From positions 4,160,001-4,224,000 of the forward strand of contig OZ243927.1 of the NCBI GenBank assembly GCA_965213925.1: a stretch of 64,000 nt of DNA, written 5' to 3'. This DNA comes from Trueperaceae bacterium. GTDB taxonomy: Bacteria > Deinococcota > Deinococci > Deinococcales > Trueperaceae. A program made the position numbers and the translations under genes. This document shows, in pieces, positions 62,248 through 63,881 of the stretch. The notes beneath the pieces were generated by a model. The model worked only from the letters and a program-made list of their open reading frames with translations, searched no databases and was not told the DNA's origin. Numbering within the stretch: the first letter of the stretch is position 1; each line of letters starts with the position of its first letter.

Positions 62248-62838
62248 ATGACAAGCCCAACCCTCACCCGTCCCCTTATCCACCGCCTCATCCCCATTCG
62301 TCAAGACGCCTTGCGCATCCCCTTACAACTCGCGCTCGGTGTGGCGCTGATGGCGCTACTCGCGCAAATTGAATTCATGATTGGTCCCATACCTGTGACC
62401 GGACAGACCTTTGGCGTGCTTCTTATCGGCGCGGCGTATGGACTTGGGCTCGGCAGCTTGACGATGGTGATTTACCTCTTGCTGGGCGGCTTCGGGCTTA
62501 GTATCTTTTCGGGTGGTGGCGCAGGTTGGGCGCATTTCACGGGGGCAACAGCAGGCTACCTCGTGGGCTTTCTCCTTGCAGCCGCTTTGGTCGGCTACTT
62601 GGCACAAAGAGGTTGGGATAAGCGTTTTTCCACCACCGCGCTTGCGATGCTCTTAGGGAACATCATCATCTACATTCCCGGACTTCTGTGGCTCTCTCAG
62701 CTTATGCCAAACGCGCAAGCAACGCTGCAAGCCGGACTGTATCCTTTCATCCCCGGGGACGTGCTCAAGCTGCTCTTAGCCTCGAGCCTCCTACCCACCG
62801 CCTGGCACTTTTTAGGACGACAAAATAAGCGTGGCTGA
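62248..62838 (+). CDS. bioY: Biotin transporter S-component
   Basis: PVTGQTF, G.T.GYL.GF, PFIPGD..K. Confidence 0.93.
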   Translation: MTSPTLTRPLIHRLIPIRQDALRIPLQLALGVALMALLAQIEFMIGPIPVTGQTFGVLLIGAAYGLGLGSLTMVIYLLLGGFGLSIFSGGGAGWAHFTGATAGYLVGFLLAAALVGYLAQRGWDKRFSTTALAMLLGNIIIYIPGLLWLSQLMPNAQATLQAGLYPFIPGDVLKLLLASSLLPTAWHFLGRQNKRG

Positions 62839-63286
62839 CTCGGACCTAAAGGTCGTCCAAGCCGGACTCCAACACTTAGACGAACTCACACAACTCTTCG
62901 ACGGTTACAGGCAGTTCTACCGCCAAGCCTCCGATGTATCAGGGGCAAAGGCGTTTTTGCACGAGCGGCTCTCGCAGGGGGATTCGGTTGTCTTCATCGC
63001 GTTTTTAGACGGTAAACCCGCAGGCTTTACGCAGCTCTACCCGTCTTTCTCATCCGTCTCTATGGCGCAGATTTGGATACTGAATGACCTCTTCGTAGCG
63101 CAACACGCGCGGCGGAGCGGCGTGGCGAAGGCGCTCATGGAACAAGCCGCAACCTTTGGCAAGGAGACGGGCGCGGCGCGGCTCACGCTTACAACTGAGG
63201 TCACAAACGAAAACGCCCAATCGCTCTATGAGGCGCTCGGGTGGGAGAAAGACACGTCGTTCTATACCTATACATTCGCCGTTTGA
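62831..63286 (+). CDS. GNAT acetyltransferase
   Basis: GFTQLYPSFSS, WILNDLFV, N.NAQ.LYE..G. Confidence 0.9.
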   Translation: MADSDLKVVQAGLQHLDELTQLFDGYRQFYRQASDVSGAKAFLHERLSQGDSVVFIAFLDGKPAGFTQLYPSFSSVSMAQIWILNDLFVAQHARRSGVAKALMEQAATFGKETGAARLTLTTEVTNENAQSLYEALGWEKDTSFYTYTFAV

Positions 63287-63298
63287 CTTAGGAACTGA

Positions 63299-63580
63299 AT
63301 GGGCATTGAATACGCGCTGAAGCTGAGCAAGGTTGATAGAGACCGGCTTGACAGATTGCTCAGAACGCACCCTCAGTTTGCATCTTTTCTACCAGAGTTC
63401 GACCTTTATGAGTTCAGAGGGGTGGCGAATGCTGGTGGGATGCCGGACGCGGACGCAGCGTTGCAGGCTTATGGACTCTACTTCTGCGACAAGGGTGGAG
63501 AGGGTCAAAAGATTCTCGAGCGTCTTATCACCAAAATAGAAAACGAATATGGACAGGTCACGCTCGAAGATTTAGAGTAA
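63299..63580 (+). CDS. Hypothetical protein
   Basis: Co-oriented 93-aa ORF with an AGGA RBS. Confidence 0.55.
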   Translation: MGIEYALKLSKVDRDRLDRLLRTHPQFASFLPEFDLYEFRGVANAGGMPDADAALQAYGLYFCDKGGEGQKILERLITKIENEYGQVTLEDLE

Positions 63581-63589
63581 TTCCAAAAA

Positions 63590-63761
63590 ACCAAAAGGAA
63601 ACAGCCTCGAGACGATCTCGAGGCTGTCGGTGCCCGCCTGGTACTGAGGATAAACAACTCTTACGAAAGTCCCTCAGTCCGGGACATGGTCAGTTACCCT
63701 CGGCGGGTACCTCCACTGGTCATGTCATTTTGTAAAATTCGGACCACCTCCTTTCTGTGGT
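63590..63761 (-). ncRNA. Candidate structured small RNA with its own -10 box and terminator
   Basis: TATACT at 63768-63773; AGAAAGGAGGTGGTCC; nested stems; terminal 12-bp hairpin 63601-63627 with a U-rich tail. Confidence 0.55.
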
Positions 63762-63881
63762 AGGAAAAGTATACAACAGATTTTTAAGGCGTATGTGTAT
63801 TTCGCTACTAAAGGCGTGCAGACGGGGAGAACTCGTGTTCTTTCTCAGCGCATAAAGAGGTCAACTTCACCTACGCAAACT

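Follow-up and report, generated by a model that had tools for sequence, protein, structure and literature searches.

A stand-alone small RNA of Trueperaceae with a Shine-Dalgarno stretch complementary to the 16S rRNA tail: a Deinococcota branch of the Ms_IGR-5/rre type

Two catalogued and uncharacterised Rfam families, Ms_IGR-5 (RF02471) and CC2171 (RF01867), weakly match the RNA described here; the former was reportedly first found in Mycobacterium smegmatis. The papers that mention either family deal with expression only (PMC8079986, PMC8780764 and preprint 10.1101/2022.01.24.477521), and describe Ms_IGR-5 as single-copy, expressed in Streptomyces and without an assigned function (PMC8079986, PMC8780764). 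A better studied analogue is rreB of Bradyrhizobium, presented by Hahn et al. (RNA Biol 2017;14:1353; PMC5711450) as a 'small mRNA with a unique, extended Shine-Dalgarno sequence'. According to that paper, rreB is a 165-nt mRNA with a 17-nt Shine-Dalgarno (SD) sequence and a 14-codon short open reading frame (sORF), which co-sediments mainly with 30S subunits, is weakly translated owing to its long SD and GUG start, and becomes more stable upon replacement of its start codon. Overproducing rreB has no effect on growth, ribosomes far outnumber the RNA, and the peptides RreB and RreR are conserved within their own clades and unstructured in synthetic form (PMC5711450). No function has been assigned to the rre RNAs, the taxa named in the paper are alphaproteobacteria only, and Deinococcus, Actinobacteria, Rfam and CC2171 are not mentioned there. 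Here we analyse a structured, stand-alone RNA gene on the minus strand, about 63761 to 63590, of a 64,000-nucleotide stretch of Trueperaceae DNA (the window), which a sequence-only reading had proposed to be a ribosome-binding or small-peptide-encoding RNA. Rather than founding a new kind of element, the RNA adds a new Deinococcota branch to the Ms_IGR-5/rre type.

We consider it fairly probable that this RNA is a ribosome-docking small mRNA of a Deinococcota form, combining the architecture of Ms_IGR-5 with the working principle of rre. The sequence-only proposal, a stand-alone RNA that binds ribosomes or encodes a small peptide, is supported by its own promoter and terminator and its single copy, and, as far as sequence comparison goes, the alignments establish the RNA gene, its covarying helices, selection for 16S complementarity in an SD that keeps its pairing, and a conserved frame. 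Our literature search found no description of this RNA in Deinococcota and no function assigned to Ms_IGR-5, CC2171 or rreB. The features are listed below from 5' to 3'; coordinates are those of the window, and the RNA is read on the minus strand.

63768..63773, minus: -10-like hexamer TATACT, from reading the sequence
63590..63761, minus: predicted transcript of ~170 nt, from the -10 spacing, the invariant A at 63761 and the terminator
63757..63760, minus: P0 5' strand CCAC, pairs with GUGG 63716-63713
63741..63756, minus: extended SD AGAAAGGAGGUGGUCC (DNA AGAAAGGAGGTGGTCC), complement of the 16 terminal 16S rRNA bases
63742..63746, minus: P1 5' strand UGGUC, pairs with GACCA 63721-63717
63694..63738, minus: 14-codon frame AUU UUA CAA AAU GAC AUG ACC AGU GGA GGU ACC CGC CGA GGG UAA (ILQNDMTSGGTRRG), from frame conservation
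63717..63721, minus: P1 3' strand GACCA, from the alignment test
63713..63716, minus: P0 3' strand GUGG; with A 63712 and GGU it forms a second SD-like element, GGAGGU
63702..63711, minus: P2 5' strand GGUACCCGCC, long-range helix with 63638-63629
63643..63678, minus: P4 hairpin ACUGAGG...CCUCAGU, arms 63678-63672 and 63649-63643, predicted by minimum free energy (MFE) folding
63629..63638, minus: P2 3' strand GGCGGGCACC, from the alignment test
63591..63628, minus: intrinsic terminator, 13-pair stem 63628-63600 followed by a T-run, from a terminator scan

The window RNA and the rre RNAs share a design. Each is a stand-alone transcript of ~165-170 nt with its own promoter and terminator (predicted from sequence alone for the window RNA), and each carries 16-17 nt complementary to the entire 16S 3' tail, canonical SD included. 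In both, an sORF of 14-18 codons with a non-AUG start begins at or just past the complementary stretch, predictions leave only the 5' portion of the SD unpaired, as a seed, and the genomic context is not conserved. They differ in that the rre start is GUG, whereas the window RNA has one G.U pair in its complement and an AUU start 2 nt beyond it, and in that the rre SD lies at a free 5' end, whereas that of the window RNA lies in a bulge between two helices. The rre RNAs probably include CC2171, an equation of our own, since the paper names neither Rfam nor CC2171 (PMC5711450). RF01867 has matches in 18 of 151 Pseudomonadota genomes; of 19 alphaproteobacterial CC2171 loci, 18 combine a 15-nt SD with a GUG, AUG or UUG start 6-7 nt past GGAGG and a frame of 14-25 codons, and the loci retrieved carry the traits common to rre and the window RNA.

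The single assembled 16S gene of the source genome ends GGATCACCTCCTTTCT, and the 16-mer at 63741-63756, singled out earlier as a super SD, therefore pairs at 16 of the 16 terminal bases (15 Watson-Crick pairs and one G.U). The longest unbroken Watson-Crick run in this duplex is 12 nt, and the predicted duplex energy is -27.8 kcal/mol for the 16-mer, -14.9 for its bulged part (see below) alone and -7.0 for a plain GGAGG core. Genome-wide, on both strands, pairing at 16/16 with wobble included is found for 3 of ~9.5 million 16-mers, namely the antisense of the 16S gene, a site in a permease gene and the SD of the RNA; the next best has 13 Watson-Crick pairs. The permease-gene site (G000:C1:2105070-2105085; 12 Watson-Crick pairs and four G.U), which lies inside a coding gene, was judged a chance match.

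Substitutions in the 16-mer across 82 aligned Deinococcota sequences (rows) follow the 16S pairing. At positions 3-16, all seven sites where a transition preserves pairing vary (five with A/G facing U, two with C/U facing G), and none of the seven sites where a transition breaks pairing does (five with G facing C, two with U facing A). All changes at positions 3-15 preserve pairing, and at position 16 it is broken by one A among the 82 rows; positions 1-2 are looser, with A opposite C in seven rows of a second subtype (see below). The 29 actinobacterial rows behave likewise, except for an A-to-U change in L185. The rows are kin, but the argument is based on the number of sites and not of sequences; the partner that this selection points to looks like GGAUCACCUCCUUUCU. 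We also noticed the same 17 bases, CTACCACGGAAAGGAGG, in a genome of another Deinococcota family (f3; L163, G038:C61:4012-4079, minus), directly before an ordinary-looking long open reading frame (ORF; ATG GAG GTC ATT ...), where they may be either a strong SD of the usual kind or what is left of the 5' domain.

The SD is followed by a frame that runs from AUU at 63738 to UAA at 63694. The sequence-only reading had pointed to a 9-residue ORF, MTSGGTRRG, at 63723-63694; this frame is present, and it is really the tail of the 14-codon frame, its ATG being codon 6, a position occupied by NUG in only about half of the rows. In the window, AUU lies 8 nt past GGAGG and 2 nt past the 16-mer, and an in-frame AUU, AUA, AUC, CUG or UUG is found 5-10 nt past GGAGG in 82/82 rows. 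The AU-rich variable part is free of in-frame stops in all 67 distinct sequences, compared with 8/67 and 26/67 in the other two frames. The stop lies within the conserved GGGUAAC and is UAA in 58 rows, UAG in 22 and UGA in two, never a sense codon. The distance from the conserved AU to the stop varies in steps of three nucleotides in 71 of the 82 rows, and the remaining 11 are one-column alignment shifts of the AU. The peptide is hypervariable in its N-terminal half; its constant second half, with a C-terminal TSGG[A/T]RRG that is near-constant within Deinococcota, corresponds to the paired strands of P1, P0 and P2. What is conserved, to judge from this pattern, is that a short frame gets read, not the peptide sequence.

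Since MFE folds differ among relatives, we tested the helices on alignments, using hand-derived helices, pair counts on 81 distinct rows, 500 shuffles and slid controls. In these rows, 95.4% of the cells are paired and 36 cells are changed on both sides; none of the 500 shuffles is as good, and sliding the helices lowers pairing to 27-63%. P0 (CCAC/GUGG) is invariant within Deinococcota. Once the actinobacterial relatives are added, 99.2% of 257 P0 cells are paired with 69 two-sided changes, a result reached by 0/500 shuffles, and the helix takes the forms CACA/UGUG, CACG/CGUG, CUUC/GAAG, CAGG/CCUG, CGCG/CGCG, CGAG/CUCG and CCAG/CUGG. One pair of P1 is GC in 66 rows, AU in 11 and GU in three. 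Ten purines, AGAAAGGAGG (63756-63747, the first 10 nt of the SD), form a bulge between P0 and P1, and the alignment-supported fold thus displays the SD. An SD-sequestering hairpin ACCAC/GUGGU is disfavoured, as in 12 rows G22 is replaced by A with a matching change in its P1 partner, and an internal anti-SD, GGACCGCCUCC, was rejected as a universal SD partner; it occurs in some clades only and is absent from the window RNA.

The 3' element noted earlier as able to pair with an upstream segment is borne out as the covarying helix P2, a 10-bp long-range helix between GGTACCCGCC (63711-63702) and GGCGGGCACC (63638-63629), with 9 of 10 positions paired in the window. One of its pairs is GC in 33 rows, GU in 23 and AU in 22, and another is UG in 37, CG in 24 and UA in 19. 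Of the pseudoknot or switch suggested for this region, only the long-range pairing covaries; the competing CCC/GGG hairpin never varies, and a switch is therefore possible at most. The outer stem GACATG..CAGT/ACTG..CATGTC, also part of the first description, is present in the window and is not conserved: at least 10 of its 12 pairs form in 2/82 homologues, six or fewer in 59/82, and on this comparison the stem is peculiar to the genus of the window. The second stem, ACTGAGG/CCTCAGT, was found at 63678-63672 and 63649-63643, where it forms the arms of P4, and an outer helix of the type (C)UGAG...CUCA(G) is the commonest MFE prediction for P4 in relatives. Between the P2 5' strand and the P4 hairpin lies GAGGGUAAC. 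The RNA stretch folds better than 200/200 shuffles (z = -4.2), and RNAalifold on a plain MAFFT alignment gave almost no consensus structure.

This fold places the RNA beside Ms_IGR-5. Both show, in the same order, a 5' A, P0, a purine SD bulge RGRRRGGAGG, P1, the P0 3' strand, a single A, P2 and a terminator. In both, P2 begins with GGUG and ends with CACC, a short frame ends just past the P2 5' strand, and P0 covaries over both phyla. In the actinobacterial RNAs, AUG, UUG, CUG or GUG lies 7-12 nt past GGAGG, and the frame ends at a fixed stop (UAG, UGA or UAA) 14 nt past the A of AGGUG in 28/29. The start-like codons AUG, UUG, CUG and GUG of Ms_IGR-5 contrast with mostly AUU, AUA or AUC in the window type (CUG in a subtype), the P1 register is shifted by one base, P2 differs in sequence, and the inner domain is larger and carries GAAUCC, as opposed to GAGGGUAAC and the P3/P4 region here. 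Because the actinobacterial frame is shifted one base relative to the RNA motif, its peptide (...REVA..) is unrelated to that of Deinococcota. The stated range of RF02471 is Actinobacteria, and the window RNA and its relatives, named Trueperaceae or Deinococcales, fall outside it.

In Actinomycetota, 36 of 121 genomes contain an RF02471 match at E ≤ 1e-3, and in 17 the match exceeds the cut-off; four of the 36, being unpublished, were left out of further analysis. Reciprocally, a covariance model built from 51 sequences of the window type (R1) recovers the site matched by RF02471 in 27 of the 29 loci from Actinobacteria (E ≤ 0.002). RF02471 gave no match in the source genome under stricter filters and, over 61 Deinococcales genomes, only two sub-threshold matches, of which the one inspected (L142) is unrelated. 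A check against Rfam had been suggested as a test of novelty: matches to the window RNA at E ≤ 1 are limited to RF02471 and RF01867, neither above its cut-off, and include no riboswitch or ribozyme family. These two weak matches, along with the experimentally studied analogue rreB, take away part of the novelty. One further locus (L204, G204:C5:115-294, minus), from a 1.7-Mb genome in a sample drawn around an actinobacterial genome, has a Deinococcota-type P0 (ACCAC/GUGG), AUU start and reading frame together with an actinobacterial-type P2. R1 gives it 45 bits and RF02471 35 bits, and it may represent either an intermediate or a transferred copy.

The covariance model from homologues, proposed earlier as a check, yielded related loci as well as covarying helices. 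R1 matches the window RNA at 63627-63765 with 108.6 bits. Across 151 Deinococcota genomes, it scores 86-128 bits in 12/12 genomes of Trueperaceae (f1), the source genome included, and 46-68 bits in 4/82 genomes of other Deinococcales (f2), in three other genera; in the largest genus (g24, 77 genomes), the RNA was not found. At ~18-23 bits, R1 has weak matches in f2, f3 and f4; the 14 inspected were judged false, nine lying in one conserved coding region and the rest in coding-looking DNA. With blastn, 20 of 24 further genomes from the family prove to contain the RNA, detected mainly via its first 80 bases. A pattern scan of one genome per species gave at least 115 loci. Among the matches listed, 67 pass a structural filter (5' ACCA and at least 8/10 pairs in the long-range helix), and those with titles shown are Trueperaceae, Truepera, Deinococcales, Deinococcaceae or unclassified; the 48 that fail lie in coding-looking DNA of many phyla. 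A second subtype, in metagenome-assembled genomes of Deinococcales, is marked by GAUCC within the SD and by CUG as the start-position codon; its inner domain is either shorter or much longer. In seven loci (L029, L045, L047, L067, L070, L115 and L135; R1 32-39 bits), the 5' domain and P2 are kept, the inner domain is 40-60 nt longer and CUG stands at the start position.

On these grounds, we propose the following mechanism. P0 and the hairpin P1 would hold the 10-nt purine bulge open, and the bulge would serve as the seed of the 16-nt complement to the whole single-stranded 16S rRNA 3' tail, on which a 30S subunit may dock far more tightly than on an ordinary mRNA. Pairing would then spread into the P1 5' strand and open P1, bringing the AUU to the P site. 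The frame would run across P1 and P0 (3' strands) and P2 (5' strand) and stop two codons past P2, and since it crosses these strands, translation would have to unfold the core of the RNA. The over-long SD, non-AUG start and structure together suggest strong binding with weak translation. Since the peptide sequence is not conserved, the function is likely to reside in the encounter with the ribosome, not in the peptide, and the fate or output of the RNA may be decided at the ribosome, as the rreB experiments suggest.

An AUU start is used in infC-type control, a non-canonical choice, and near-cognate starts are discriminated against by initiation factor 3 (IF3). The window RNA resembles infC in having near-cognate AUU, AUA or AUC in start position after a strong SD; it differs in that no tie to IF3 is seen and in that its relatives in other phyla start with AUG, GUG, UUG or CUG, and we regard the likeness as a lead only.

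Several points weigh against the proposal of a ribosome-docking small mRNA. RF02471 covers the window RNA end to end (model positions 1-184) with 29.3 bits (E = 5e-4), below its gathering cut-off of 45 bits, and RF01867 reaches 19.9 bits against a cut-off of 75 (E = 0.33 in a 4-kb scan, 0.09 per genome). R1 finds 0/18 alphaproteobacterial loci at E ≤ 0.01, and the tie to rre is therefore one of design, not of demonstrable homology. The sequences compared are kin, so that counts across rows overstate independent support. AUU, AUA and AUC are poor starts and an internal NUG is present in about half of the sequences, and either codon may be the one used. Since TSGG[A/T]RRG is conserved within Deinococcota, the peptide may still have a role, and since overproduction of rreB leaves growth unaffected, simple titration of ribosomes is an unlikely one for these RNAs. 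Docking on 30S, initiation at AUU, weak translation and the gain to the cell are what we infer, for the window RNA and its Deinococcota relatives alike.

An ordinary small-protein gene, in which the 14-residue peptide ILQNDMTSGGTRRG carries the function and the RNA structure serves only to tune expression, would explain why frame, stop and start-like codon are kept in 82/82 rows and why TSGG[A/T]RRG is near-constant in Deinococcota, and the clade-wise conservation of RreB and RreR (PMC5711450) speaks for it too. We nevertheless regard such a gene as unlikely, because the N-terminal half is hypervariable and the constant C-terminal codons consist of bases that are locked in P1, P0 and P2 and change as pairing dictates: an R in a first codon position covaries with the base opposite in P2, and a Y occupies a third position. 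Moreover, relative to the conserved AGGUG, the actinobacterial frame lies one base out of register and has the unrelated ...REVA.. ending, and a long SD with a non-AUG start, both of which lowered translation of rreB, is unexpected where protein output matters; the synthetic rre peptides, as noted, are unstructured (PMC5711450). Another possibility is an untranslated decoy or guard that pairs with the anti-SD tail of idle 30S subunits and whose open frame is incidental. Such an RNA might silence idle subunits, favour leaderless mRNAs or shield the 16S tail from 3' exonucleases in dormancy. It would make sense of a 16-nt complement (-27.8 kcal/mol) displayed in a bulge, of the strongest such site in the genome and of substitutions that preserve pairing along the entire tail, and the phyla carrying these RNAs are known for many leaderless mRNAs. 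Without translation, however, a frame that is stop-free in 67/67 sequences (8/67 and 26/67 in the others) and a stop that varies only among UAA, UAG and UGA are hard to explain, and rreB overproduction left growth unslowed with ribosomes far in excess of the RNA (PMC5711450); we consider an untranslated decoy decidedly unlikely.

A cis-acting leader (attenuator or riboswitch) or a CsrB-type protein sponge could draw on the alternative pairings, that is, the CCC/GGG hairpin versus P2 and, in some clades, GGACCGCCUCC versus the SD, and on several GGA motifs. A leader is at odds with the layout, as no same-strand gene lies downstream in the window, where the next genes are convergent (63299-63580, +), and as the downstream neighbour is not conserved: the commonest cluster is convergent (14 loci), and none is common with Actinomycetota. 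The Rfam search at E ≤ 1 likewise yielded no riboswitch or ribozyme family. A sponge lacks its protein, since CsrA (PF02599) has 0 matches in the genome, which is 96.9% complete, in a search whose control was positive in E. coli, B. subtilis and T. maritima. With neither a CsrA gene nor a downstream gene found, we hold both a leader and a sponge to be highly improbable.

A wider interpretation is that the Deinococcota RNA, Ms_IGR-5 and rre/CC2171 form one ancient cross-phylum class that senses ribosomes, or one that caps or protects the 16S 3' tail of idle subunits; we consider this rather doubtful. If it were true, an SD-helix decoy with a throw-away mini-frame, often with a near-cognate start, would read the free 30S pool or initiation fidelity (IF3) and turn this readout into decay or refolding of the RNA itself; alternatively, the 16S 3' tail would be protected in dormant, desiccated or stationary cells. 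In our preferred reading, that of a ribosome-docking small mRNA, a class of small stand-alone mRNAs with an SD matching the entire 16S tail and a tiny frame for an unconserved peptide extends to a third phylum, Deinococcota. The class also gains a covariation-supported fold common to Actinomycetota, in which P0 and P1 present the SD bulge and P2 is locked over the frame. That such a design is kept over this distance suggests that it does something important at the ribosome, and the Deinococcota form offers clean experimental handles in its 10-nt seed bulge, its AUU start and its stop right past P2.

The RNA gene is single-copy in the 4.75-Mb genome. The -10 box TATACT given by the sequence-only reading is present at 63773-63768, and homologues have a TAnAnT-like hexamer equally spaced, ~7 nt ahead of the invariant A-CCAC; a sigma-70 scan found no -35/-10 pair on the strand of the RNA. 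We set the 5' end of the transcript at A 63761, which is invariant in 81/81 distinct rows, and the 3' end in the T-run past the terminator; a search for sequencing runs gave no RNA entry, only two DNA-type entries from one study. The strong terminator expected there proved to be the 13-pair stem at 63628-63600 with its T-run, and in homologues, too, a GC-rich hairpin and a T-run follow the core. Also in agreement with the first description, the window holds no credible minus-strand ORF or gene downstream of the RNA.

Genes adjoining the RNA are convergent or lie upstream on the same strand. The nearest convergent gene, a 93-codon ORF at 63299-63580 (+), converges on the terminator of the small RNA; it is followed by a 151-codon ORF at 62831-63286, a putative GNAT-like acetyltransferase, and by a BioY-like gene at 62248-62838. 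A BioY-like gene also lies downstream, in convergent orientation, in 14 related loci and makes up the commonest downstream cluster. The upstream neighbour is a divergent Fe-S-cluster membrane protein in 22 loci and a cluster without a family name in eight further loci. The Fe-S-cluster membrane protein and BioY-like names are our presumption, from motifs recognised in the translations and not from a family scan. Clustering of neighbours revealed no ribosome-related gene, no conserved same-strand downstream neighbour and nothing common with Actinomycetota.

A bipartite motif precedes the -10 box in homologues; the window copy lies at 63791-63812 on the minus strand, and others stand ahead of the RNA in L107, L110, L113, L121 and further loci. 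In the clade of the window, it reads CGTAA-N4-7-TNACAC (TAGTAGCGAAATACACA here); in another clade, it reads TGTGAC-N6-9-TCACA and looks like an inverted repeat. The motif could comprise a -35 region plus a regulator site.

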